Source: an uncultured Candidatus Saccharibacteria bacterium | GTDB lineage: Bacteria; Patescibacteriota; Minisyncoccia; UBA6257; 2-01-FULL-56-20 | DNA length: 64,000 nucleotides | Direction of reading: 5' to 3' | Assembly: GCA_964387675.1 (NCBI GenBank) | Contig: CAYLWL010000001.1 | Location: 1,099 to 65,098, forward strand | Shown here: piece after piece, positions 1,774-64,000 of the stretch | Layout: every line of letters starts with the position of its first letter | Numbering within the stretch: position 1 is the stretch's first letter | Notes under the pieces: model-generated | Told to the model about the DNA's origin: nothing | The model's database searches: none | What the model saw: the letters and a program-made list of their open reading frames with translations, nothing else | Program-made: the position numbers and the translations under genes

Positions 1774-2967
1774 ATGCGCATAGCAATTTTTTCAGACGTG
1801 TTTTATCCGGAACTGTCCGGAGTGTCGGACTCCGTCGTCTCTCTTTCAAAAGAGCTCGCCAAACAAGGCCACTTTATAAACTTTTACGTTCCGAGATATT
1901 CTCCGGAGGACTACAAGAAAGTCGGTGTGCCGGAAAAAGAACCCGACTTCGGCCAGAATATAAAAATCGTCCGCTTTTCTTCCATCCACATAAGCGCCGG
2001 CACCGGACAAGGGCGCGGTGTGATACCTTCTTTTTGGAGATGGCGCGAGGTAAAAAAATTCCGGCCGGACGTGATACACGCACAGCTCTTCTTCGGCGTG
2101 GGGCTTGAAGCCCTCATCGCCTCGCGAAGGATCGGAGTTCCTCTCATCGGCACGAACCACACCGCCGTCAAAGAATTTCTCCGCTACTCGCCCGTGAGGT
2201 CGGAAAGAACGGATCGTTGGATCCTTCAATATGTAAACTGGTACTACGGCAAATGTGTTCTCACAACCGCGCCGTCACAATCGGTGATTGACGAAATGGA
2301 GCGATACGGATTCAAAGGAAAAAGCGCCGTGCTTTCAAATCCAATTGATACGAACGTTTTCCGCCCTGCCGGCAATAAAACGGCGCTCAAGAAAAAATAC
2401 GGCTTGTCCGATTTCTGCCTGATGTACGCCGGCAGATTAGCGCCGGAGAAAAACGTGGACGTAATAATAAAGGCCTTGGCGCTCGCAAAAAAATCTATTC
2501 CCGAAGCACAACTTGCGATCGCCGGCACCGGCACCGAAGAGCAAAACCTTAAACACCTTGCCGGTTCTCTGGGCGTAGAAAAGTCCATAAAGTTTTTGGG
2601 ATTTCTCGACCACGCAAAACTTGCCGAGGCCTACAACGCCTCGGAGGCATTCGTTATGATGAGCACATCGGAAACCCAGGGCCTCGTAATGATGCAGGCA
2701 ATGGCTTGTGGCATTCCGGTGATAGGAGCGCGAGCAAGAGCGCTCCCGGAGTATATCAATACAGAAAACGGGATTTTGGTGGAACCGGATGATCACAAAA
2801 CGCTCGCCGAGAAAATAGTTTTTCTTCTTACCAACGATAATGTAAGAAAAAAACTTGGCGCGGGAGCGCGGGAATCGGTTCAGAAGTTTTCAGCGCCGGC
2901 TGTCGCCAAAGAATGGGAGCAAATTTACGAAAGGGCGATTGCGGACTACAATAGAAGTAATCGCTAA
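1774..2967 (+). CDS. Glycosyltransferase family 4
   Basis: 397 aa. N-terminal MRIAIFSDVFYPELSGV, and a C-terminal GT4 core (E..G..MMQAMACGIPVIG). Confidence 0.75.
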   Translation: MRIAIFSDVFYPELSGVSDSVVSLSKELAKQGHFINFYVPRYSPEDYKKVGVPEKEPDFGQNIKIVRFSSIHISAGTGQGRGVIPSFWRWREVKKFRPDVIHAQLFFGVGLEALIASRRIGVPLIGTNHTAVKEFLRYSPVRSERTDRWILQYVNWYYGKCVLTTAPSQSVIDEMERYGFKGKSAVLSNPIDTNVFRPAGNKTALKKKYGLSDFCLMYAGRLAPEKNVDVIIKALALAKKSIPEAQLAIAGTGTEEQNLKHLAGSLGVEKSIKFLGFLDHAKLAEAYNASEAFVMMSTSETQGLVMMQAMACGIPVIGARARALPEYINTENGILVEPDDHKTLAEKIVFLLTNDNVRKKLGAGARESVQKFSAPAVAKEWEQIYERAIADYNRSNR

Positions 2968-3059
2968 TAACGCGAATAACACGGGGTAATAATGCGAATA
3001 CAACAGGAAATTAAATTCGCGTTATTAAAATAAAAATTAGCATTATTCGCGATTACTCC
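2968..3059. repeat. Intergenic repeat family L1, copy A, abutting the GT2 start codon
   Basis: About 90 bp with internal inverted repeats (taataacgcgaataa ... ttattcgcattatta). It is about 85% identical to the reverse complement of 63270-63372. It ends in cgcgattactccATG. Confidence 0.75.
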
Positions 3060-3956
3060 ATGAAACTAAGCTTCGTCATCCCCGCCTACAATGAGGAGCG
3101 CCATATTGGTCTGTGTCTTGATTCTATTTTTAAAGAACTGCGCGGCACCTCGTACGATGTGGAGGTTATTGTCGTCAACAACGCCTCGACGGATCGAACG
3201 CGCGAGATCGCGGCGCGGTACAAGGAAGCAAGAATCGTTGACGAACCTCGAAAGGGCCTCGTCTGGGCCCGCCGCGCGGGTTTTTTGGCTTCAACCGGTG
3301 ATTTGATTGCCAACATTGACGCCGACACGATACTGCCGTCCGGCTGGCTCAAGAAAGCATTTGACGAGTTCGGTGAAAACCAGAAGCTTATTGCCCTGAG
3401 CGGACCGTACATTCTTTACGATTTGCCGCCGACGATAAACTTTTTCGTGAAAACTTTTTTCTTCCCCATTTCTTTTTTGGGATATATGGTCAACCGATTC
3501 ATATTACGGGGCGGATCGATGGTGCTGGGAGGCAACTACGTCATAAGAAAATGGGCGCTTCAAAAAATAGGCGGTTACAACACCGAAATCGGATTCTACG
3601 GCGAGGACGCGGACATCTCCCGGCGCGCGGCCAAGCTGGGACCGGTGAAGTTCACGTATAAATTTCCGATCTACACCTCCGGCCGGCGCATCGCGAAAGA
3701 GGGCGCTTTTACCATGGGGGTGAGATACGGCGCGAACTATCTTTCCATGATGATTTTCCAAAGACCGAAGACCAAAACGTATGTAGACGTGAGGATTGAA
3801 AACGGCGGAGAGAAGCTAAAGTATGAACCGGAAAATAAATCGAAGGAATGGACGATTGCCTCGATTACGATTATTATTCTCTTTGCGATCATCGCGGGGC
3901 TGGGATTCGGAGCGTATCGGCTTGGCATCGTGATCGCGCGGCTCTTGTTCCTTTGA
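3060..3956 (+). CDS. Glycosyltransferase family 2
   Basis: N-terminus LSFVIPAYNEERHIGLCLDS...VIVVNNASTDRT, with a C-terminal transmembrane helix. Its stop overlaps the next start as TGATG. Confidence 0.7.
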   Translation: MKLSFVIPAYNEERHIGLCLDSIFKELRGTSYDVEVIVVNNASTDRTREIAARYKEARIVDEPRKGLVWARRAGFLASTGDLIANIDADTILPSGWLKKAFDEFGENQKLIALSGPYILYDLPPTINFFVKTFFFPISFLGYMVNRFILRGGSMVLGGNYVIRKWALQKIGGYNTEIGFYGEDADISRRAAKLGPVKFTYKFPIYTSGRRIAKEGAFTMGVRYGANYLSMMIFQRPKTKTYVDVRIENGGEKLKYEPENKSKEWTIASITIIILFAIIAGLGFGAYRLGIVIARLLFL

Positions 3957-12224: not shown

Positions 12225-13244
12225 TTACGCGAAGTTTGTTTGGTGGTCGGCGTTATACAGAACTTCGGCGCCGGATTGCACAAACTTGACCGGTATTTCC
12301 CGGAACTCCCGGAGATTGTTGTCTTTGGCAATTTTCGTGACGGCATCTCGCACCGCCGCTTTTTTATCCGGCGAAGCAAAGAACATCACGCAACCGCCGC
12401 CGCCGGCGCCCAGTACTTTTCCGCCCCAAGCACCGGCCGACATCCCGGCGTCATATAAGGTATCGATTGCGGAATTCGACATATTCGACGCCAACATTTT
12501 TTTTCTCGCCCACCCTTGATGGAGCATGCGCCCCAGCCCCTCAAACTCGCCGGCCGAAAGCTTTGCTTTGAACTCGGGCACCGAAGCGGCCATTTCTTTG
12601 AGCGTCTCGAATTTTTTGTCAATATTGCTCTTTTGCTCGGCAAGAACGCTTGAGGCGATCCTGGTAAGTCCCGTAAAGAAAAGTAAAATACGATCCTCGA
12701 GGCCAAGCCGCTTTTTATAATCAAGAAGCACCGGCTCAACGCCGACCGAATGGTCGGGGTTGAACTTGAAAACGTTAAAGCCGCCGAACGACGCGGCGTA
12801 TTGATCCTGCTTACCGATCGGCTCGCCCACTAAATCTATTTCCAGGCGGCTCGCCTGCTCGGCCGCTTCGGTTTTATCGATTTTTTTTCCGTTAAAAGCA
12901 TGGAGTCCCTTCACGAGAGCAACCGAGAAGCTGGAAGACGAACCAAGTCCGGTTTTCGCCGGAAGCGACGCGAACGAAGCAATCTCGATATTCTTGTTGA
13001 TGCCGAGGTCGGTGAGCGCCGCCCTGATGCGGGTGTGCTGAAGCTCGCTCGGGTGGCCGACGGTTTCCGAAACGGAATACCGCGCCGAAATTTTATCGAT
13101 GAGCGGGGTACGGTTAATAACCACGTACACAAACTTGTCGATGGCCGTCGAGATAACACTACCGGGGCTTTTCTTATAAAAATCCGGCAGGTCTGTCCCC
13201 CCGCCGACAAAGCTGATGCGTAATGGCGCGCGGACTACGATCAT
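12225..13244 (-). CDS. GHMP-family sugar kinase (HddA-like D-glycero-D-manno-heptose 7-phosphate kinase)
   Basis: MIVVRAPLRISFVGGGTDLPDFY at the N-terminus. GHMP ATP-binding loop PAKTGLGSSSSFSVAL. Confidence 0.65.
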   Translation of the reverse strand: MIVVRAPLRISFVGGGTDLPDFYKKSPGSVISTAIDKFVYVVINRTPLIDKISARYSVSETVGHPSELQHTRIRAALTDLGINKNIEIASFASLPAKTGLGSSSSFSVALVKGLHAFNGKKIDKTEAAEQASRLEIDLVGEPIGKQDQYAASFGGFNVFKFNPDHSVGVEPVLLDYKKRLGLEDRILLFFTGLTRIASSVLAEQKSNIDKKFETLKEMAASVPEFKAKLSAGEFEGLGRMLHQGWARKKMLASNMSNSAIDTLYDAGMSAGAWGGKVLGAGGGGCVMFFASPDKKAAVRDAVTKIAKDNNLREFREIPVKFVQSGAEVLYNADHQTNFA

Positions 13245-13373
13245 CCCTCACCTTTCGAGGATTGCGCGGCGGCAATCTCGTTGATTTAATTTCCACGACT
13301 TTTTATTGCGGAATATCATTGTTTTGTTGGAGGCCTCGCCCAGAAGACATTAATCCTCGATAAGGTGAGGGAT
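13245..13373. repeat. MITE-like repeat family L2, copy A, with 21-bp terminal inverted repeats, abutting the hddA-like start codon
   Basis: atccctcacctttcgaggatt ... aatcctcgataaggtgagggat. It is about 95% identical to 23051-23179 in inverted orientation. Confidence 0.8.
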
Positions 13374-13461: not shown

Positions 13462-14403
13462 TCAGCCGAATAGTTTCTTTTTCAACTTATGCGTATTTCC
13501 GTGGCCAAGGAGTCCACGATATGAGGCGGAGGTTTCGTCAGACAGATTTTCACCCAATCGTCTGGCCATCCGCCGCCTTGTCGCGGCCCTCAAAGTCCGG
13601 TGATACGGAAAGTGAACCCAACCGAGGAAGTCGACGCCGGAGGCGAACGTTTTGATAGAAACTTTGTCAGGATGAAGTGATATGTGTAGCCGCGTCTCGA
13701 GAAAACCTGAAGTTTTCGGAATAATGCTTTCCAAGTATCGCTTATCCTCGTGTACAATCACAAAATCGTCGGCATAGCGAACGCAATGGCGAATCTTCAG
13801 CTTCCGCTTCAAGAACTGGTCGAACTCGTTCATGTAAATATTCACGAGGAGCTGGCTCGTGAGGTTGCCAAGCGGCAGGCCGACGCCCGGCTTGTCCTTT
13901 GTATGGAAGCTGTCAATGGTTTCGGCCAAGAGCCATAAAATATCGTTATCTTCGATGTACCGCTTCAAAATGTCTTTTAATGTTCCATGATCGATGCTCG
14001 CGAAAAATTTCCTGATGTCGCATTTAAGGATCCATGCCGTCCGCGCGTGATTGCGCGAGACGACCCTCGTATATTTCTTGAAACGATCCATCGCGCGGTA
14101 CGTGCCTTTGTCGTAGCGACAGGAATACGAATCGAAGATGAATTTCTTATCGAAATAGGGATACAAAATCCGGTAAATCGCGTGGTGCAGCAAGCGGTCG
14201 CGTACTTCGGCCTTGTGGATTTCACGCGGCTTCGGGTCGTTGATTTTGAATGGCCGGTACGGACCGTGCCGGTATGTTTTGTCCGATAATTCCCGGTGAA
14301 GCGCGAGGATATTGCCCGTAAGATTCAAAGAAAACAATGCAACATCTTTGCGTTTTCGCTTGCCGCGTAAAAATTCGCGCCACGCGGAAAGCAGATTTTC
14401 CAC
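13462..14403 (-). CDS. Diversity-generating retroelement (DGR) reverse transcriptase
   Basis: 313 aa. RT motifs 1-7, including YADDFVIV. Carries the DGR-specific motif GLPLGNLTSQLLVNIY where other RTs have QGxxxSP. The N-terminus LSAWREFLRGKRKRKDVALF is typical of Brt-like RTs. Confidence 0.85.
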   Translation of the reverse strand: MENLLSAWREFLRGKRKRKDVALFSLNLTGNILALHRELSDKTYRHGPYRPFKINDPKPREIHKAEVRDRLLHHAIYRILYPYFDKKFIFDSYSCRYDKGTYRAMDRFKKYTRVVSRNHARTAWILKCDIRKFFASIDHGTLKDILKRYIEDNDILWLLAETIDSFHTKDKPGVGLPLGNLTSQLLVNIYMNEFDQFLKRKLKIRHCVRYADDFVIVHEDKRYLESIIPKTSGFLETRLHISLHPDKVSIKTFASGVDFLGWVHFPYHRTLRAATRRRMARRLGENLSDETSASYRGLLGHGNTHKLKKKLFG

Positions 14404-23050: not shown

Positions 23051-23179
23051 GATCCCTCACCTTTCGAGGATTAATATCTTCTGGGCGAGGCCTTCAACAA
23101 AACAATGATATTCCGCAATAAAAAGTCGTGGAAATTAGATCAACGAGGTTGCCGCCGCGCAATCCTCGAAAGGTGAGAG
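23051..23179. repeat. MITE-like repeat family L2, copy B, abutting the rodZ-like start codon
   Basis: Terminal inverted repeats gatccctcacctttcgaggatt ... aatcctcgaaaggtgagag, followed immediately by ATG 23180. Confidence 0.8.
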
Positions 23180-23830
23180 ATGGACGATCAAAACTTTTTT
23201 TCTTTTCTCAATGGTCGCATCAAGGATAAGGGGCTCAACCTCAAAAAGATTTCCGAGCTCTCGGGGATCTCTTTGAAACACCTGGAGGCACTCGGCCGAG
23301 AAGATTTTTCGGCGATGCCGCCGGCGCCGTATTTTCGGGGATATCTCATAAAACTCGGGGAAATATTGGATTTCGATCCCGATCCGTGGTGGTCAAAAAT
23401 AAAAAGCGCCGGCGCCGTGAGAAATTCGGGGGAGGAAGACGCTCCTCCCCGGAATCGGTTCATCAAGCCCCAGTTCCTGAAATTCATCTGGGCCGCGATC
23501 GTCGGGCTTGTTGTTTTGCTGTACATCTCGCTCCAATCTTCAAGAATCCTTGGCAAGCCAAACATTCAAGTGGTGTATCCCGAGACAAATCCGGCCGTTG
23601 CGGCGAGCAACACCATAACGCTCAAGGGGAGCGTTTCCAACTGGAACGAACTCACGCTGAACGGCGAGCCGATATCGGTTAGTCGCGACGGGGAGTGGGA
23701 AAAAATCGTGCTTCTGGAGCCGGGCCTCAACTCCCTCGAACTAAAAGCTAAAAAGTTCCTGGGGGGCGAGATCAAGGTGATAGAGCAGATCATATACCAA
23801 CCCACCAGTACTATTGGGGCTTCTTCATAA
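23180..23830 (+). CDS. RodZ-like helix-turn-helix membrane protein
   Basis: N-terminal HTH (LKKISELSGISLKHLEALGRED), a single transmembrane helix, and a C-terminal beta domain. Confidence 0.5.
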   Translation: MDDQNFFSFLNGRIKDKGLNLKKISELSGISLKHLEALGREDFSAMPPAPYFRGYLIKLGEILDFDPDPWWSKIKSAGAVRNSGEEDAPPRNRFIKPQFLKFIWAAIVGLVVLLYISLQSSRILGKPNIQVVYPETNPAVAASNTITLKGSVSNWNELTLNGEPISVSRDGEWEKIVLLEPGLNSLELKAKKFLGGEIKVIEQIIYQPTSTIGASS

Positions 23831-23842
23831 CCACTGTTTATG

Positions 23843-23998
23843 ATTGCGCCCCGCGCAGTCCTTTCGGAAACAGCCTCGATTTGCTCCAGCGGCAAATCGG
23901 ACTTCGCTCTCGGCGAAAAACCGAGCACATAACGCCTATGTGCTCGGACCAATCTTTTTCGCCTCCGAGATATTCCTCAAGAACAGCGCGAGGCTCAC
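23843..23998. repeat. Structured repeat R1, copy 1 (inverted relative to 29557-29712)
   Basis: Its reverse complement aligns with 29557-29712 (for example ctcggtttttcgccgagagcga.gcccgatttgccgctggagcaaatcgagg). It contains an 11-bp hairpin ccgagcacata-acgcc-tatgtgctcgg. Confidence 0.75.
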
Positions 23999-24051: not shown

Positions 24052-24198
24052 CATAAGTCCTTACGCGCGGCTCTTCGGCCGAGCTGGCAGGGTGCCGAGC
24101 ACATAATGCGTTATGTGCTCGGCGAGCGAGGACGAAGCGCCAGCGAGAAGTCGCGCTGGGACTTCGAGCGGTAGCGGAAGGGCTTGTGGTACGAGATC
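24052..24198. repeat. Structured repeat R2, copy 1, directly upstream of recA
   Basis: It aligns with 27953-28096 (gcgcggctcttcg...gccagcga.aa.tc.cgctggg.a.tt.gagcggtagc.gaagg.cttgt). Includes a 12-bp hairpin ccgagcacataa-tgcg-ttatgtgctcgg. Confidence 0.75.
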
Positions 24199-27952: not shown

Positions 27953-28096
27953 GGCAGACACAAGCCCTTCGGCGCGGCTCTTCGACTGAGCGGGCATGGT
28001 TCCTGAGCCGCGTCGAAGGAGAGCGAAGGAGAAGTGCCAGCGAAAATCCTCGCTGGGGATTTGAGCGGTAGCCGAAGGACTTGTATCTGTCATCTC
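27953..28096. repeat. Structured repeat R2, copy 2
   Basis: See 24052-24198. The hairpin ccagcga-aaatcc-tcgctgg covaries with ccagcg-agaagtcg-cgctgg in copy 1. Confidence 0.7.
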
Positions 28097-29556: not shown

Positions 29557-29712
29557 GCTCCGCCGCAGTGTTCTTGAGGAACATCTCGGAGGCGAAAAAG
29601 ATCGGTCCGAGCATCGAATGCGTTCGATCTCGGTTTTTCGCCGAGAGCGAGGCCCGATTTGCCGCTGGAGCAAATCGAGGCCGTTTCCGAAAGAATACTG
29701 CGGCGGAGCGAA
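29557..29712. repeat. Structured repeat R1, copy 2
   Basis: A 13-bp closing stem gctccgccgcagt/actgcggcggagc encloses about 125 nt. An internal hairpin ccgagcatcgaa-tgcg-ttcgatctcgg covaries with copy 1. Confidence 0.75.
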
Positions 29713-29723
29713 ACCGGCGCAGT

Positions 29724-31877
29724 CTACTGCAGCTGTTTGATTGAAAGCCCGATCCTGCCTTCTTCAACGCGGACGATCTTCGCCCGCACATGATCGCCCA
29801 TTTTCAAAACTTCGTCGACGGTCTTCACGTAGCCGTTTTTCAGTTCGGAGATGTGCACCATGCCGTCCCATCCTCCGCCAAGATCAACGATCGCTCCGAA
29901 ATCCATAATCTTTATCACGTTCCCTTCGACGATCTCGCCGACTTTGAACTCTTTAGTGATTGCCGTCGCTTCGGCAACCGCCGCTTCGACGGAATCCACA
30001 TCCGTCCCGGAAATAAACACGCTTCCGTCGTCATCGATATCTATCGCGCTCAAGCCGTACTTCTTCACCAGGCCGTTGATGATTTTCCCGCCCGGACCGA
30101 TCAAGGCGCCTATCTTTTCGGTGCTGATCTTGATGATCTTGATCGCAGGAACGTATTTCGAAAGCTTTGGCTTCGGTTCCGCGATAACGGATTTGATGAA
30201 CTGCAATATCTCGAGGCGCGCTTTCTTCGCCTGCCTGAAAGCATCTTCGAGCATCTCGATACTCAAGCCGTCAACTTTAACATCCATTTGCAGGGCATTG
30301 ATCCCGTCTTCGGTGCCGGCCACCTTCAGGTCCATATCTCCGTGGTGATCTTCCGGCCCCTGGATGTCGGTGAGAACTTTGTAGTTTGGCTCTTTGCCCT
30401 TAGCTCTCTGCTCTTTGCCATCAACCATAAGTCCCATCGCGATCCCCGCGGCGGGTTTTTTGATCGGCACACCGGCGTCCATAAGAGACATGACCGTTGC
30501 GCATACCGTCGCCATCGAAGAAGAACCGTTTGAAGAAAGTATTTCTGAAACCACCCTGATCGTATACGGAAACTGTTCTTTGTCGGGAATCAAAGGCACA
30601 ATCGCTTTCCTTGCCAAGTTGCCGTGGCCGATGTCGCGCCGGCCAGGCCCCCGAAACGATCCGACTTCTCCCACCGAGTACGGCGGGAAGTTGTAGTGCA
30701 GGAGAAAACGTCTTTTTTCGGTTCTCTCCATTGTTTCTATGAGTTGTTCCGCGCCGGGAGCGTCAAGCGTCGTTATCCCTAAGGCCTGGGTGTTACCGCG
30801 GATGAACACGGCCGAGCCGTGGGTTCTCGGGAACAAGCCGATTTCTCCGTTCAGCGCGCGAAGCTGGTCCAGCTTCCTCCCGTCCGGACGCTTTTCCTTT
30901 TCCAAAACGTTTTTATGAACCAAGGTATTGATCTGCTCTTCAAACAGGGCGTCGACGGCTTTGAGATTCGGTTCCTGAAAGTGTTCCGTGATGTAGGCCA
31001 AGAGCGAATCTTTCAAGGCCCCAAGCTTCCCAAGATACTCAACTTTGTTCGGCTGGTAAATCGCTTCTTCGAGCCGGTTCTCCAAAAACTTTTCTATCGC
31101 CGCCTTGAGCGCCGGGTCGAATTCAAAAAGAGCGATTTCTGTTTTTGGTTTTCCTATTTCCCGTATGATCTTGTTCTGGAAATCGATCAGAGCGTTTATT
31201 TCTTTTTGGGCAACGCGGAAACCGGAAACGACTTCTTGCTCCGGAGCGTCATCTCCCCCCAGTTCGATCATGTTGATCGTGTCTTTCGAGCCGGCGACGA
31301 ACGCGTCGAAGACCGCCTTTGATGCCGCGACCTCCGAATTCGACGGGTTGATTTTAAGCTCATTGCCGATCTTCGCGAGGCGCACTCCGGCCACCGGCCC
31401 GCCCCACGGAACGTTCGAAATGCCCAAAGCCGTGGACGCGCCGAGAAGGCCCAAAAACTCCGGGTCGTTTTCTCCGTCAATTTCCAAGACCGTAACCACG
31501 ACTTGAATCTCCCGGCGGATTCGATTGTCGAAAAGCGGCCGGATCGCGCGATCCACCAGCCGGCCGGCAAGAACCGCCTCTTCGGACGCCCTGCCCTCTC
31601 TTCTCACAAAACGGCTGCCAAGAATCTTTCCGGCGGCGTAAAACTTCTCTTCGTAATCGACTTTCAGGGGCAAATAATCCGTGTCCGCGTCTTTGTGGGA
31701 CATAACAACCGTCGCCAACACAATGGTTTCTCCGTATTTCACGATAACCGCGGCATTGGCCTGATCCGCCAGAGACGAATGCTCTACGGTGAGTGTTTTT
31801 CCGGCAACCTCCGTGGTGAATGTTTTTCTTTGAATCGGCATGGCCCTAAGAATAGCAATGTAAGATGCAAAAATCAA
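29724..31877 (-). CDS. pnp: Polyribonucleotide nucleotidyltransferase (PNPase)
   Basis: 717 aa with two RNase PH domains, KH and S1 domains (GDHVRAKIVRVEEGRIGLSIKQ). Confidence 0.9.
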   Translation of the reverse strand: MIFASYIAILRAMPIQRKTFTTEVAGKTLTVEHSSLADQANAAVIVKYGETIVLATVVMSHKDADTDYLPLKVDYEEKFYAAGKILGSRFVRREGRASEEAVLAGRLVDRAIRPLFDNRIRREIQVVVTVLEIDGENDPEFLGLLGASTALGISNVPWGGPVAGVRLAKIGNELKINPSNSEVAASKAVFDAFVAGSKDTINMIELGGDDAPEQEVVSGFRVAQKEINALIDFQNKIIREIGKPKTEIALFEFDPALKAAIEKFLENRLEEAIYQPNKVEYLGKLGALKDSLLAYITEHFQEPNLKAVDALFEEQINTLVHKNVLEKEKRPDGRKLDQLRALNGEIGLFPRTHGSAVFIRGNTQALGITTLDAPGAEQLIETMERTEKRRFLLHYNFPPYSVGEVGSFRGPGRRDIGHGNLARKAIVPLIPDKEQFPYTIRVVSEILSSNGSSSMATVCATVMSLMDAGVPIKKPAAGIAMGLMVDGKEQRAKGKEPNYKVLTDIQGPEDHHGDMDLKVAGTEDGINALQMDVKVDGLSIEMLEDAFRQAKKARLEILQFIKSVIAEPKPKLSKYVPAIKIIKISTEKIGALIGPGGKIINGLVKKYGLSAIDIDDDGSVFISGTDVDSVEAAVAEATAITKEFKVGEIVEGNVIKIMDFGAIVDLGGGWDGMVHISELKNGYVKTVDEVLKMGDHVRAKIVRVEEGRIGLSIKQLQ

Positions 31878-31893
31878 ATCGCATTTTCACTTC

Positions 31894-32466
31894 CTATCTT
31901 TTTATGATAATCCTCGGTATTTCTTCTATGTTGATAAATCTATCGGCGACTTCTTGTACTTTGAGGGAAGCGCTCCTCTTGAACGCCGCGACTTCCACGA
32001 ACCTTCCGACTCCCCATTTGAGGTAGTCGATCAGGGGAATAAAATCACCGTCGCCGGTGACAAGAATCACGACGTCGAGAAACGACGCCATCCTGATGGC
32101 GTCAACCGCCATACCGACGTCCCAATCCGCTTTTTTCATTCCGCCGGCGAAAACCTGCAAGTCCTTCACGCGGAGTTCCAAACCGGCCTTCTCCAGCGCC
32201 TCGAAAAAAGACGCCTCCGACGAAAGCGGCACCGGTCTGCCGCCGCGGCCGCTCCGGACGCTCGGTTCTCGGTGCGCCACCTCTACGATTCCTTCGCTCT
32301 TTACGACATACGCCATGGCGCGGATGAGCTGCCTCCCGCCAACGAGATATTTGATGAGCTCGCCATAATTCACCCGCCCGCCGTACAGATTCTTCGCCGA
32401 GTGATACAAATTCTGAACATCGACGAAAATGCCGACGCGCTGATTAGGATTGGTTGCTTGCTTCAT
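31894..32466 (-). CDS. NYN/LabA-like domain protein
   Basis: VGIFVDVQNLYHSA...VILVTGDGDFIPL matches the NYN nuclease fold signature. Confidence 0.65.
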   Translation of the reverse strand: MKQATNPNQRVGIFVDVQNLYHSAKNLYGGRVNYGELIKYLVGGRQLIRAMAYVVKSEGIVEVAHREPSVRSGRGGRPVPLSSEASFFEALEKAGLELRVKDLQVFAGGMKKADWDVGMAVDAIRMASFLDVVILVTGDGDFIPLIDYLKWGVGRFVEVAAFKRSASLKVQEVADRFINIEEIPRIIIKR

Positions 32467-32510
32467 TTTCGTGTCAAGTGTCAGGTGTCAGGCATCAAGA
32501 TCGTTTCTAC
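32467..32510. repeat. Tandem heptad repeat (CTGACAC x4) directly upstream of the NYN start codon
   Basis: The minus strand reads cttgatgcctgacacctgacacttgacacgaaaATG. Confidence 0.75.
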
Positions 32511-32534: not shown

Positions 32535-32801
32535 TTATTTTTTTAGTTCCAGTTTTCTAATGGTTTTCTCGTACATCTTGACGTCGTTCTTTTTCAAGTA
32601 CGCCAAAAACCGCCTGCGTTTTCCGACAAGCTTTAAAAGACCTCGCCGCGAGTGGTGGTCTTTCGGGTTCTTTTTCAGATGCTCGGCAAGTTCGTTCACT
32701 CTCCTTGTGATAACCGCGATCTGAACCTGCGCCGAACCCGTGTCTTTTTCGTGGGTTTGATGCTCTTTGATGATTTTGGATTTTACGCGCTTGGTCAGCA
32801 T
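32535..32801 (-). CDS. rpsO: 30S ribosomal protein S15
   Basis: 88 aa. ...[29 protein letters not shown]. Confidence 0.9.
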
Positions 32802-32880
32802 GGAGTAATCGCGAACCTGCCTACCGGCTGGCAGGTAACGCTAATTAATTCTAGGTAATAATGCGAATCTACCCTTGTTG
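32802..32880. repeat. Partial, divergent copy of the L1 repeat upstream of rpsO
   Basis: It shares ggtaataatgcgaat, and also cgcgattactccATG placed against the rpsO start. Confidence 0.5.
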
Positions 32881-32960
32881 CTTTCGTGAATTAATAGTAA
32901 TGGGTTTTCGCGGAAAATGCAAACTTTGTCGACCCGCGCCTTCTGTCGTAAAATGTATAT

Positions 32961-51382: not shown

Positions 51383-51411
51383 CTAATGTCTAATGTCTGG
51401 TAACTAATGTC
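51383..51411. repeat. Tandem heptad repeat (CTAATGT x3-4) ending 5 nt before the glyA ATG
   Basis: ctaatgtctaatgtctggtaactaatgtc. It is part of an imperfect inverted repeat with 51343-51363. Confidence 0.75.
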
Positions 51412-51416
51412 TTTTT

Positions 51417-52655
51417 ATGCGCGACAAAGTATTAGAAAGCTTAATCAAAAAGGAAATCGGGCGTCAGAAGGAAACGCTCGACTTGATTCCGTCGGAAAAC
51501 ATCGCCTCGCCCGCTGTTTTGCGCGCGCTCGGCTCGCCGCTCGCCAATAAATATTCCGAAGGGTATCCGAAGAAAAGATACTATGCGGGTAATTCCGTTA
51601 TTGACGAGATTGAATTGCTGGCGCAAGAGCGGGCCCGAAAAGTTTTCCGGCTTGGTAAAAACTGGCACGTGAACGTCCAGCCATATTCCGGCTCTCCGGC
51701 GAATATGGCTGTCTATTTCGCGCTTCTGAAACCGGGTGACAAGATTATGGGAATGAGTTTGCCGTTTGGGGGGCACCTCACGCATGGATGGCGAGCCAAT
51801 TTTTCGGGGCAGCTCTATGCGTCGATACAATACAAGCTCAAGCAGGATGGTTTTCTGGACTACAAAGAAATCTACCGCATGGCCAAGAAAGAGAAACCAA
51901 AAATCATCGTCGCCGGCGCGACTGCGTATCCAAGAATCTTCGACTTCAAAAAACTCGGCGGCATCGCAAGGAATGTCGGCGCGTACTTTCTTGCGGATAT
52001 TTCGCATATCGCGGGACTCGTCGCCGCGGGCGCGCATCCATCGCCATTCCCCTACGCCGACGTGGTGACCACAACAACCCACAAAACTCTCCGCGGGCCG
52101 AGAGGGGCGATTATATTTAGCAAAGAGCAAAGAGCAAAGAGCAAAGAGCAAGTGGTAACGATTGCGGAGGCGATAGATAAAGCTGTTTTTCCCGGACTCC
52201 AGGGCGGGCCGCACGATAATCAGACTGCGGCAATCGCCACGGCGCTTTTCGAAGCGAACACAACACAATTCAAAAAGTACGGACGCCAAACCGTGAAAAA
52301 CGCCAAAGTGCTCGCTCGCGAACTCACGCGGCTCGGATTCAACCTCGTAAGCGGCGGCACGGACAATCACTTGATACTTATCGACCTGACAAATTTGGGC
52401 ATCTCCGGCCGGGAGGCGCAAGATCGCCTTGAGGCGAGCGGAATAATAACAAACAGGAATGCCGTGCCCTACGACACGCGCTCGCCGTTCGATCCATCGG
52501 GAATCCGCATCGGCACGCCGGCCCTCACCACGCGCGGGATGAAGGAGAGAGAAATGAGAGAAGTCGCGGAGTTGATTTCTGACATACTCATACGGCGCAA
52601 AGTAACGAGCGTCGCAGTGCGGCAGCTTTGCAGACAATTCCCGCTTCCGTATTAA
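51417..52655 (+). CDS. glyA: Serine hydroxymethyltransferase
   Basis: PLP-lysine region TTTHKTLRGPRG, and SHMT N-terminal motifs. Confidence 0.9.
   Translation: MRDKVLESLIKKEIGRQKETLDLIPSENIASPAVLRALGSPLANKYSEGYPKKRYYAGNSVIDEIELLAQERARKVFRLGKNWHVNVQPYSGSPANMAVYFALLKPGDKIMGMSLPFGGHLTHGWRANFSGQLYASIQYKLKQDGFLDYKEIYRMAKKEKPKIIVAGATAYPRIFDFKKLGGIARNVGAYFLADISHIAGLVAAGAHPSPFPYADVVTTTTHKTLRGPRGAIIFSKEQRAKSKEQVVTIAEAIDKAVFPGLQGGPHDNQTAAIATALFEANTTQFKKYGRQTVKNAKVLARELTRLGFNLVSGGTDNHLILIDLTNLGISGREAQDRLEASGIITNRNAVPYDTRSPFDPSGIRIGTPALTTRGMKEREMREVAELISDILIRRKVTSVAVRQLCRQFPLPY
52120..52147 (+). repeat. GCAAAGA x4 tandem heptad inside glyA
   Basis: Read directly. It encodes the KEQRAKSKEQ insert. The unit length is not a multiple of 3. 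Confidence 0.9.
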
Positions 52656-61940: not shown

Positions 61941-63269
61941 TCATTTACTCGTCATCAACTGGCTCGCTTGGTCTTGCGCCTGCCGTAACGCGTGTTCCGA
62001 ATCCGCTTTTCCGCTTAACACCCTCGTTATCGCGTCATTTATTATTCTATCAATAATCTCGTCGTCCGCCTCGTGCCACGACTGGGCGGTAAGCGCCTGC
62101 CTCACGAAAACTCCCATATCCGGATCGTCCAGTTTTTGGGCGATGAGAGATCGGAGGGCGGGCGGGTGGCCGGTTGCGTCAAGATATAATTTCGAAGCGT
62201 CGGGGTTTGTCGTCGCGAAAAGCGCGAAATCCCATGCCCAACCGATGGATTTGCTCTGTTTTGAAACCGCGAGGCCCCAGTAACGAGGGTAGTTCACGCC
62301 GGTCTCCGACCCCGTGGGTTGGAGCATCGGAGCAACCGCGACATTCAGGAATGGGCTCTTGCCCCCGATCTTGTCAATCGCCGATTTGTAATTGAACACA
62401 ATAGCCGTCTTGCCGTTCGCGAAACTGTCGATCGAATTCTGTTGGGCATCATTCCAGGTGTACCGGGGCGAACCGGCATTCGCAAATTGAAGATAAAAGT
62501 TGAAAGCGGCCAGTCCCGGATTTTTGTTGTCGTCCCGCGCCGAAGCAAAAGTGGCCGACGAAAAGTTGTTGGTTGTCATCTGCGTGCCGTTTTGAAGCAT
62601 CAAGAGAACCAGAAGATCGACTCCCGCATCAACGCTTTGCTCGGAGCCGCCGATCGCCGCGGCCGCTCTCACGATTTGCCCGCTCTCATTCAACGTCTTG
62701 AGCCGCGGCACGATAGAGAGAAATTCATCCCATGTTTTCGGCGGAAAAACGATCGCGGCTTGGTTGAAGAGGTCTTTATTGTAGATCGTCGCCATCGTGT
62801 CCACGTACAGCGGGAGAGCGAAAATCTGCTTTGCCTCGCCTGTGGCGGGGCTCCCGGAAGCCGACACGAAGTCCTGTTCCGCAACCGCGGGGAAAAAATT
62901 TCTGAATCCCGCAAGCCCCAACTGCGCCGGCAAAATCGGGTACAATTTATTCATGTGCTTCGGCAGGGCCCTATTTCTGACATAGAGCACGTCTGGTCCG
63001 GCGCCTTCGGCCAATGCGTCAACCAGAACGCCATCGTACTTCGCGGGATCAATCTCTTTATAGGTTACTTGAACGTTTGGTCTGAACGCCTTGTAGCTCT
63101 GAATAACTTTTTCTATGGCCGCGGAGCTCTCGGTGCCCCAAAAATTCAAAGACACCTGCTCCCTAACCCCGCTGTCGCGGCGAACGTTAAGGCCAACAAC
63201 AACGAAGATAAGGATGAAGACAACGGCGATGCCCGCGAGTATGAAGATTTGTTTCTGGGAAAGTTTCAT
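61941..63269 (-). CDS. ABC transporter substrate-binding protein (sugar-type, SBP family 1)
   Basis: N-terminal transmembrane/signal anchor. 442 aa with an extracellular solute-binding pattern. Confidence 0.6.
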   Translation of the reverse strand: MKLSQKQIFILAGIAVVFILIFVVVGLNVRRDSGVREQVSLNFWGTESSAAIEKVIQSYKAFRPNVQVTYKEIDPAKYDGVLVDALAEGAGPDVLYVRNRALPKHMNKLYPILPAQLGLAGFRNFFPAVAEQDFVSASGSPATGEAKQIFALPLYVDTMATIYNKDLFNQAAIVFPPKTWDEFLSIVPRLKTLNESGQIVRAAAAIGGSEQSVDAGVDLLVLLMLQNGTQMTTNNFSSATFASARDDNKNPGLAAFNFYLQFANAGSPRYTWNDAQQNSIDSFANGKTAIVFNYKSAIDKIGGKSPFLNVAVAPMLQPTGSETGVNYPRYWGLAVSKQSKSIGWAWDFALFATTNPDASKLYLDATGHPPALRSLIAQKLDDPDMGVFVRQALTAQSWHEADDEIIDRIINDAITRVLSGKADSEHALRQAQDQASQLMTSK

Positions 63270-63372
63270 GGAGTATTCGCGAATAACGCTAATTTTTATT
63301 TAATAATGCGAATTTGGTTTCCGGTTCCATTCGCGTTATTACCCGGTATTATTCGCGTTATTAGCGATTACT
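63270..63372. repeat. Intergenic repeat family L1, copy B (inverted relative to copy A), abutting the SBP start codon
   Basis: ggagtattcgcgaataacgctaatttttatttaataatgcgaat...attcgcgttattagcgattactc is about 85% identical to the reverse complement of 2968-3059. Confidence 0.75.
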
Positions 63373-64000
63373 CTAGATAATAACGGTTCCCGCGAGCCGA
63401 TCTCCCGCCTTGAGGTTCATAATTTTGACGCCTTGGGCGGAGCGGCCCGTCGCGCGAACGGACTCGATGCTCGTCCTGATCATCTGGCCCTTTTGAGAGA
63501 GGGCGAATATTTCTTTTTCATCGCCGACAATATGAGCTGAAACCAGGGGGCCTGTCTTGGGAGTAATGTTCGCTGTTCGTATGCCGGATCCGCCGCGACT
63601 CTGCACTTTGTATTCCTTGAGCGCGGTCTGTTTGGCAAAACCGTTCGACATTACGACAAGCAAGCGCGAAGAGCCGGTGGCAATCTCTTTGCCCCCCGCT
63701 CCCTGCTCTTTGCTCTTTATTATATCAAAGCCCGCCACCTCGTCGTCTTTTTTGAGGCGCACGGCCCGCACGCCGGCGGCCGTCCGGCCCATCGCGCGGA
63801 TTTGCGCCTCCTTGAATCTGATCGACTGGCCAAGCTTGGTGGTAAGCATCACTTGATCGTTGCCGCTCGACAGCTTCACCCAGCGGAGCGCGTCTCCTTT
63901 TTTAAGGGAGATGGCGATGATTCCGGTGCGCCTGATATTTTCAAAATCCTCAAGCGACGTCTTCTTGATAAGGCCTTTTTTCGTGACCATAACTAAGTAA
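63373..64000 (-). CDS. gyrA: DNA gyrase subunit A, C-terminal beta-pinwheel domain (the gene continues beyond the window)
   Basis: Repeated blade motifs (...GRTAAGVRAVRL..., ...GRSAQGVKIMNL...). There is no in-frame stop upstream of 63990 before the window edge. Confidence 0.7.
   Translation of the reverse strand, partial: YLVMVTKKGLIKKTSLEDFENIRRTGIIAISLKKGDALRWVKLSSGNDQVMLTTKLGQSIRFKEAQIRAMGRTAAGVRAVRLKKDDEVAGFDIIKSKEQGAGGKEIATGSSRLLVVMSNGFAKQTALKEYKVQSRGGSGIRTANITPKTGPLVSAHIVGDEKEIFALSQKGQMIRTSIESVRATGRSAQGVKIMNLKAGDRLAGTVII

Follow-up and report, generated by a model that had tools for sequence, protein, structure and literature searches.

The palindromic repeat that precedes the GT2 gene near one end of the 64-kb window (the whole stretch of DNA analysed here) is genuine and belongs to a widespread family. 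What defines the family is a clade-specific, orientation-specific cassette of ~50 bp found in Paceibacteria-type CPR bacteria, and sequence evidence suggests that this cassette is probably the promoter of the gene it precedes. We use “unit” for the cassette, “full element” for a unit together with an inverted, systematically altered copy of itself, and “half” for a unit that lacks this inverted left arm. The unit always reads toward its gene and stands before highly expressed housekeeping genes.

A literature search (motif strings and descriptions of CPR promoters and repeats) returned nothing relevant, and Rfam searches of the whole window at the gathering threshold and of the copies at E<=10 returned only tRNAs and noise, so the cassette is undescribed as far as these libraries show. 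We classify it as a new variant of promoter cassette or of Correia-like intergenic palindrome. To our knowledge, almost nothing is known experimentally about how transcription and translation start in CPR/Patescibacteria. Conservation of ~50 bp, near base for base, beside the start codons of ribosomal-protein genes gives a testable handle on initiation in CPR, and the element is of above-average interest for CPR biology. The unit is also a candidate strong promoter for the genetic tools emerging in CPR/Patescibacteria and a marker that helps to place start codons correctly in the annotation of thousands of MAGs, and the stop-to-start palindrome hints at a way for streamlined genomes to combine termination and initiation signals in a single element.

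Structure of the copies in the window

The window contains two full palindromic copies of ~102 nt each, at 2956-3059 (+) and 63270-63372 (-), and a half copy before rpsO at 32802-32868 (-). It lies on contig JACQKV010000018.1 of GCA_016204365.1, a CPR MAG from groundwater. The preliminary description had reported all three, and its claim that copies 1 and 2 are mutually inverted is borne out by a complementarity of 86% over 80 nt and 95% over 40 nt, with a global identity of 88.8%. Its span for copy 1, 2968-3059, has the right end, but the copy starts at 2956, where the left arm AGTAATCGCTAATAACGCGAAT runs over the end of the upstream GT4 gene, including its final codons and TAA stop. The truncated relative before rpsO is a real half element, recovered by a profile HMM of the unit at E=5.5e-9. 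This HMM, built from 99 units and run on the window, recovers exactly five arms, all at the three known loci, and no further copies. The 13-mer core ATTCGCGTTATTA occurs eight times in the window at <=2 mismatches, against 1.99 occurrences expected, and none of 100 shuffles reaches eight.

The genes downstream of the copies had been named correctly: Pfam identifies GT2 and S15, and the third is an SBP_bac_1 solute-binding protein. Before the GT2 gene and rpsO the terminal CGCGATTACTCCATG has no mismatch, and before the solute-binding-protein gene it has one (GAATAC). An earlier statement that all copies end in cgcgattactcc is therefore accurate for two of them and needs correcting for the other, which reads cgcgaAtactccATG, one base off.

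A full copy consists of one 13-mer box arranged as two nested inverted repeats, plus an outer extension. Its outer half runs AGTAATCGC-TAATAACGCGAAT, about 9 nt, TAATAAYGCGAAT and about 15 nt, and its gene-facing half runs ATTCGCRTTATTA, 7-8 nt, ATTAGCRTTATTCGCGAWTACT, CC and the ATG. Copy 1 lies on the + strand throughout. Its left, non-gene-facing proximal arm (2956..2977) contains the GT4 TAA stop (2965-2967) and on its own strand reads ATTCGCGTTATTAGCGATTACT, with the C4, G7, A13 and T18 that make up the “non-facing” signature. The left distal 13-mer box TAATAATGCGAAT follows at 2987..2999, and the right distal box, which is the ATTCGCGTTATTA core itself with a -35-like TTCGCG, at 3015..3027. 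The gene-facing proximal 22-mer ATTAGCATTATTCGCGATTACT (3036..3057; nhmmer E=3.6e-13) contains a -10-like CATTAT at 3041-3046 and a GC-rich TCGCGA at 3047-3052, and is followed by CC and then by the ATG of the GT2 gene (3060).

Copy 2 has the same parts on the - strand. Its gene-facing proximal 22-mer ATTAGCGTTATTCGCGAATACT (63272..63293; nhmmer E=1.7e-14) is separated by CC from the ATG (63267-63269) of the ABC solute-binding protein gene. The right distal box ATTCGCATTATTA is at 63301..63313, the left distal box, read on the - strand as TAATAACGCGAAT, at 63329..63341, and the left non-facing arm, again AGTAATCGCTAATAACGCGAAT on the - strand, at 63351..63372, beginning directly after the gyrA TAG stop (63373-63375).

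Copy 3, before rpsO and also on the - strand, has no left arm, and its upstream neighbour xerC is divergent. The start-proximal block TTCGCGATTACTCC (32802..32815) adjoins the ATG (32799-32801). A 20-nt GC-rich hairpin CCTGCCAGCCGGTAGGCAGG (32816..32835) is inserted within the proximal block, between ATTAGCGTTA (32836..32845) and TTCGCGATTACTCC, and destroys the CRTTAT hexamer. The distal box ATTCGCATTATTA is at 32856..32868, and the spacer between it and ATTAGCGTTA, cctagaatta, contains TAGAAT.

Distribution of the unit and the genes it precedes

The module was found in >170 stretches, drawn from at least 20 CPR genomes and from many metagenomes. An exact-pattern scan of genomes, with one genome per species, found 51 stretches, 46 of them in CPR MAGs labelled Lipton-, Wolfe-, Colwell- or Harrisonbacteria, Paceibacterota or generic Patescibacteria; one Wolfebacteria MAG had up to 11 matches. 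Nearly every genome match runs on into TTCGCGAWTACTC and an ATG. Scanning metagenome contigs with the 22-mer gave at least 120 stretches, among them an 893-kb contig (Ga0208375_1000002) with at least seven copies, five of which are inside the S10-spc ribosomal-protein cluster. The 22-mer had no match in the viral contigs of IMG/VR, and we therefore see no phage link. The preliminary description had proposed a wider search and named a lack of further copies and of conservation as the outcome that would count against it; because the family is very widespread, that outcome did not occur.

Pooling both scans gave 99 unique gene-facing units, each facing an ORF of >=50 codons and each with a downstream ATG by construction of the search. 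Read toward the gene, the unit is ATTCGCRTTATTA, 5-12 nt, ATTMGCRTTATTMGCGAWTACT, C, 1-3 nt and ATG. The ATG begins 2-4 nt after the ACT in 85% of the 99 units (a gap of 3 nt in 42, 2 nt in 30 and 4 nt in 12), which puts T19 at -7/-6. In genes without a unit at these loci, the final T of TANNNT is most frequent in this slot. Full elements account for 64 of the 99, halves for 34 and a proximal-only unit for one. Elements are 62-127 nt long, with 22-nt arms that form terminal inverted repeats.

The downstream genes mainly encode ribosomal proteins, RRF, NusA, Obg, GroES, aminoacyl-tRNA synthetases and pilus components. Pfam confirmed L11, L24, L6, S9, L10, S18, L22, L13 and L33 among the ribosomal proteins and RRF, NusA, Obg, PheT, GroES, Hsp20, RecR, PilC and pilin among the others; by sequence, L2, L3, L14, L18, Ndk and others can be added. 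Some genes have the unit in more than one genome: rplK and rplM three times each, and rplN, rplV, rplC, rplJ, rpsR and nusA twice each. The unit is also kept before orthologous solute-binding-protein genes of only 36-45% identity, and the gyrA-SBP synteny of the window is conserved in one further locus (L061).

Two of the retrieved loci contain features of separate interest. In L036 (5008-6337), rplK, which has a unit upstream, is followed not by rplA (L1) but by a 203-aa unrelated ORF and gatB, consistent with a uL1-lacking Parcubacteria group. In L022 (~3727-3756), a CIRCE-like inverted repeat of the HrcA operator type, TTGGCACTC-N9-GAGTGCTAA with TTCGCGATTACATTAT before it, directly adjoins the left arm of an element upstream of groES.

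The two arms are not equivalent

Full elements are fitted to the space between genes. The stop codon of a co-directional ORF lies within -5..+16 nt of the outer arm in 38/64 full elements, compared with 4/35 for the half and proximal-only units (Fisher p=2e-6). The full element therefore fills the whole stop-to-start gap.

The arms of a full element also differ in a consistent direction. Where only one arm of a full element faces a gene (52 elements), the facing/non-facing combination was A18/T18 in 34 and the reverse in 5, A7/G7 in 21 and the reverse in 5, and A4/C4 in 28 and the reverse in 11. In the metagenome set, which is free of ascertainment bias, both A7 (OR 4.2, p=0.002) and A18 (OR 3.2, p=0.006) mark gene-facing arms, with A7 present in 88% of gene-facing arms and 65% of non-facing arms.

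This polarity shapes the palindrome. In the outer stem, 50-54 of the 64 full elements have mismatches at positions 4, 13 and 18, making three fixed mismatches, and the base at position 7 of one arm is independent of that in the other (two C-G pairs against 3.1 expected); both follow from the arms not being equivalent. The stem-loop that had been predicted from internal inverted repeats is sound thermodynamically, with fold energies of -30.4 and -32.4 kcal/mol (z = -5.7 and -5.2), but not as a conserved RNA structure: the hairpin exists only because both arms are the same motif, inverted. The proposed covariation analysis came out negative, as the variable positions of the arms do not covary in the 64 full elements. 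The left arm is missing from a third of the units, and Rfam covariance models gave a best E of 0.6 against the copies, with all scores far under gathering. A structured-RNA reading of the element, and with it the suggestion of a conserved leader or regulatory RNA, is not supported. An intrinsic terminator scan found none in the element, whose stems are AU-rich and whose 3' flank is CCAUGAAA; the hairpin has no U-tract downstream and is therefore not a classical terminator.

A probable promoter abutting the start codon

In genes of the same loci without a unit, the last T of TANNNT peaks at -7, with 67 cases over a background of ~22, and TANAAT reaches 34 against ~4. This peak is the signature of ATG-abutting promoters and leaderless mRNAs. 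In one ribosomal-protein cluster, several neighbouring genes, all lacking a Shine-Dalgarno sequence, have a promoter-like -10 beside the start codon.

The unit fills the same space as these ATG-abutting promoters and alternates with canonical TTGACA-17-TAnnnT-6-ATG promoters at orthologous genes. For example, rpsO has the unit in the window, but in loci L143, L159 and L026 it is preceded by TTGACA-17-GATACT-6-ATG, TTGATT..TAGAAT-6-ATG or TAGAAT-8-ATG. The reverse is seen for xerC, which has the unit in L026 and TTGTCG-17-TAAAAT-6-ATG in the window. Full elements that touch the upstream stop codon also leave no room for any other promoter.

The unit has promoter-like parts of its own. Its distal box supplies TTNGCA (TTCGCA in 59/97 units) and its proximal block CRTTAT, and the spacer from TTCGCA to CATTAT is 17-19 nt in 86/97 gene-facing units. 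Gene-facing arms are enriched for A7, which is the A of CATTAT, and for A18, a purine 7 nt downstream that adjoins the invariant A17. Between CATTAT and A17/A18 lies the GC-rich TCGCGA, which resembles a discriminator. A GC-rich discriminator is typical of growth-rate-controlled or stringently controlled promoters of translation genes in E. coli.

We propose that the distal box would act as the -35-like element (TTCGCA) and the proximal block as the -10-like element (CATTAT, 17-19 bp downstream), with TCGCGA as the discriminator and transcription starting at the invariant A17 or at A18. Such a start would give a 7-10-nt leader, A(A/U)UACUC..AUG; a leader of this length with no Shine-Dalgarno sequence is an unusual class. 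Alternatively, transcription could start at the ATG itself, because GCGAWT sits exactly in the -12..-7 slot (T19 at -7/-6). The conservation of ~45 contiguous positions goes far beyond the need of two hexamers and points to an additional sequence-specific factor (a sigma factor, activator or repressor) that would read the 13-mer boxes. The inverted arm carries systematic “disarming” substitutions (A7 to G, A18 to T and A4 to C) and may block antisense firing. In read-through RNA, it could pair with the unit as a hairpin of -30 kcal/mol ending 2-3 nt before the AUG and so insulate or terminate the upstream transcript; the inverted arm would thereby give polarity or insulation. Copies within a genome are homogenised by duplication or gene conversion.

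Several observations limit how closely the unit can be likened to a sigma-70 promoter. The window copies are a poor fit to sigma-70, with TTCGCG in copy 1, CGTTAT (no -11 A) in copy 2 and a split hexamer in copy 3. Within copy 1, a consensus promoter scan found no promoter. The GCGAWT of the -10 slot is not TANNNT and has no essential -11 A, so only the T at -7/-6 coincides, and the spacing of the hexamers is equally constrained in non-facing arms. Separately, a regular-expression search for a sigma-70 region-2 motif found none in all loci retrieved.

Other polymerase systems were considered and set aside. A sigma-54 (-24/-12) alignment, made by eye, failed on the GG/GC register. CGAATA resembles the -10 of FliA-type (TAAA-N15-GCCGATAA) or ComX/SigH-type (TACGAATA / GAAT) promoters in A18 arms only and with no conserved upstream partner, which makes it a lead only. 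AATACT was rejected as a -10 because the start would fall inside the ORF, and no evidence supported the likeness of the contiguous 22-mer to the promoter of a T7-like single-subunit polymerase.

Upstream regions of tRNA genes gave no information on GCGAAT, with a single exception: in L019 (1944-1970), a divergent tRNA-Arg has the distal box, read on the other strand (TAATAACGCGAAT), 14 nt upstream of it, the only case met of a box placed like a tRNA -10.

A more ambitious form of the promoter reading is possible, and we offer it tentatively. The cassette may belong to a dedicated, clade-specific system of transcription initiation in which an alternative sigma factor or activator would recognise both the 13-mer boxes and the 22-mer and drive (near-)leaderless expression of the translation apparatus in CPR bacteria without an anti-Shine-Dalgarno sequence. 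The palindrome would then be terminator or insulator and promoter in one, punctuating former operons such as S10-spc into single-gene units.

Alternative explanations

The unit might instead be transcribed as a 5' leader, either as a signal for Shine-Dalgarno-independent translation initiation or ribosome loading, or as a sequence-specific processing site that yields (near-)leaderless mRNAs from polycistronic transcripts. We consider this unlikely. The tight distance of 2-4 nt to the AUG does resemble the constraint on a ribosome-binding site, and GCGATTACTCC remains beside the ATG despite upstream insertions of 20-33 nt (rpsO and L051). Units also punctuate the S10-spc cluster, whose internal cistrons need an initiation signal. 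However, the unit has no self-structure and the palindrome no covariation, orthologues use ATG-abutting promoters with no leader at all, and the arms differ from each other at positions of promoter type, namely the A of CATTAT and the purine at the predicted start.

The location of other promoters bears on the same question from both sides. Several half units have canonical -10-like hexamers further upstream (e.g., TTGCAT-17-TACTAT at 32894-32922 before rpsO), which could place the unit within a 5' UTR there. For full elements that abut the upstream stop codon, though, there is no room for a separate promoter. Given the retention of GCGATTACTCC and these upstream hexamers, the start-proximal block may have an RNA-level role.

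Loss of the anti-Shine-Dalgarno sequence would favour such a role, and at least some members of the clade have lost it: the tail of the Liptonbacteria 16S rRNA in L015, GGAUCAAUUAAUCU, has no CCUCC, in agreement with the loss reported in a Parcubacteria subgroup (PMC9297842). The window organism, on the other hand, keeps an enrichment of GGAG at -7..-9. Among k-mers enriched near starts, which might reveal an alternative ribosome-binding site, we found -10-like words (TATA and TACT), with GGAG in the window only. The unit itself contains no GGAGG. Against the L015 tail, which comes from another clade member, it offers only the five AU-rich pairs of GAUUA:UAAUC, and these are lost in A18 arms; a novel pairing of the Shine-Dalgarno/anti-Shine-Dalgarno kind with this tail was rejected as too weak. 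The 16S rRNA gene of L015 (1-3430) is itself split by large insertions, and its 3' end reads GGATCAATTAATCTAG, with the CCTCC anti-Shine-Dalgarno absent.

The preliminary description had also suggested a promoter-carrying mobile element. The promoter part of that suggestion comes much closer to our own reading, while the mobile part is only partly supported. Taken in full, it would make the family a MITE or a “mobile promoter” of Correia/ERIC type that spread selfishly and whose promoter activity is incidental, which we judge distinctly improbable. The 22-nt terminal inverted repeats, the length of 62-127 nt and the many copies per genome are what such an element would have, and there is published precedent for promoters reused as repeats (PMC3575422). 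Within a genome, copies are 83% identical, non-conserved spacers included, against 69% between genomes, and arms are tandemly multiplied at some loci (L035, L040, L060 and L020). From this likeness and the tandem arms, we conclude that duplication or gene conversion operates.

Transposition, however, should leave other traces. We looked for target-site duplications in 87 full elements (k=2-6, nine boundary offsets), and at no boundary or length tested did the counts exceed those of shuffled-flank controls. Both ends of the element lie within a few nt of stop and start codons, the arms differ systematically and are polarised toward the gene, and half units are common (34/99) and functional-looking. 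The motif hardly varies across many candidate phyla or between orthologous genes, and we saw no transposase-bearing parent and no copies in viral contigs. A classical MITE is therefore unlikely, given the lack of target-site duplication, the precise stop-to-start placement, the polarised arms and the clade-deep conservation.

Least probable is that the 13-mer boxes are operators of a clade-specific global regulator or nucleoid protein over a translation-apparatus regulon, i.e., a repressor or activator array and not a core promoter: two to seven 13-mers per locus, direct and inverted, with start-to-start spacing of about 19-21 bp, a perfect 12-bp palindrome (TATTCGCGAATA) in A18 arms, a coherent regulon of downstream genes and related ATTCGTA direct repeats upstream of other ribosomal-protein genes with an extended -10 would suit it, but no other promoter separates the boxes from the ATG in unit genes, the boxes carry the sole -35/-10-like hexamers at the right spacing, and the operator array overlaps the promoter cassette without excluding it.

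Relation to known systems

E. coli promoters of the rrnB P1 type are stringently controlled promoters of rRNA and ribosomal-protein genes with a GC-rich discriminator. The unit resembles them in its GC-rich TCGCGA between the -10-like hexamer and the predicted start, and in serving ribosomal-protein and translation-factor genes. It differs in having weaker hexamers and far more conserved flanks.

In the -10-adjacent leaderless promoters of Deinococcus-Thermus (PMC12340547) and Actinobacteria (PMC3898074), the promoter also abuts the ORF, and the CPR loci studied here show both TANNNT at -7 and the swapping of the unit with such promoters. Unlike them, the unit has GCGAWT in the slot and ~45 contiguous conserved positions instead of a single hexamer. 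Reused or “mobile” promoters (PMC3575422) are comparable in that closely similar upstream sequence stands before unrelated genes, both within and between genomes. The CPR unit, in contrast, is clade-deep, keeps a fixed distance to the start codon and has an inverted partner arm.

Correia repeat-enclosed elements (CREE) of Neisseria (PMC2649163) are likewise intergenic palindromes, of ~100-150 bp, whose inverted ends can supply an outward promoter; as in the CPR family, there is a long RNA hairpin and there are many copies per genome. CREE are mobile, duplicate a TA target, are confined to one genus and lie at variable distances from genes (PMC2649163), whereas the CPR element has no target-site duplication, fits exactly from stop to start, has polarised arms and extends across many candidate phyla.

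Other repeats in the window

Besides the palindromic family, the window contains a 119-nt inverted repeat (13242-13360 and 23064-23182; 96%) upstream of two unrelated genes, at 12225-13244 (-) and 23180-23830 (+). It is presumably the first repeat family of the preliminary description. Both regions contain ..cctcgaaaggtgagRG-ATG, whose GGTGAG is Shine-Dalgarno-like, unlike the start-abutting cassette.

Short tandem repeats lie directly upstream of start codons at 1736-1768, 30389-30418, 32467-32499, 51385-51416, 52110-52150 and 63685-63736. For example, CTTGACGCCTGACGCCTGACACTTGACAC precedes the GT4 ATG and an inverted copy of it precedes the gene at 31894-32466 (-), AATGTCT is repeated three times upstream of the start at 51417, and runs of CAAAGAG are also present. 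Repeats of GTCATAA, ATTCGTA and TTCATAA stand likewise before ribosomal-protein genes in other CPR loci. These start-proximal tandem repeats may be a second, related class of upstream signal.

A further group of repeats falls between 23861 and 29693, with ~130-nt inverted repeats (92-95%) 5.6 kb apart and direct repeats (about 80%) 3.9 kb apart (23861-23990 and 29564-29693; 24052-24187 and 27959-28084). They suggest paralogous gene starts or a rearranged segment. Finally, precomputed Pfam annotation places a reverse-transcriptase domain (RVT_1) in the gene at ~13462-14403 (-).
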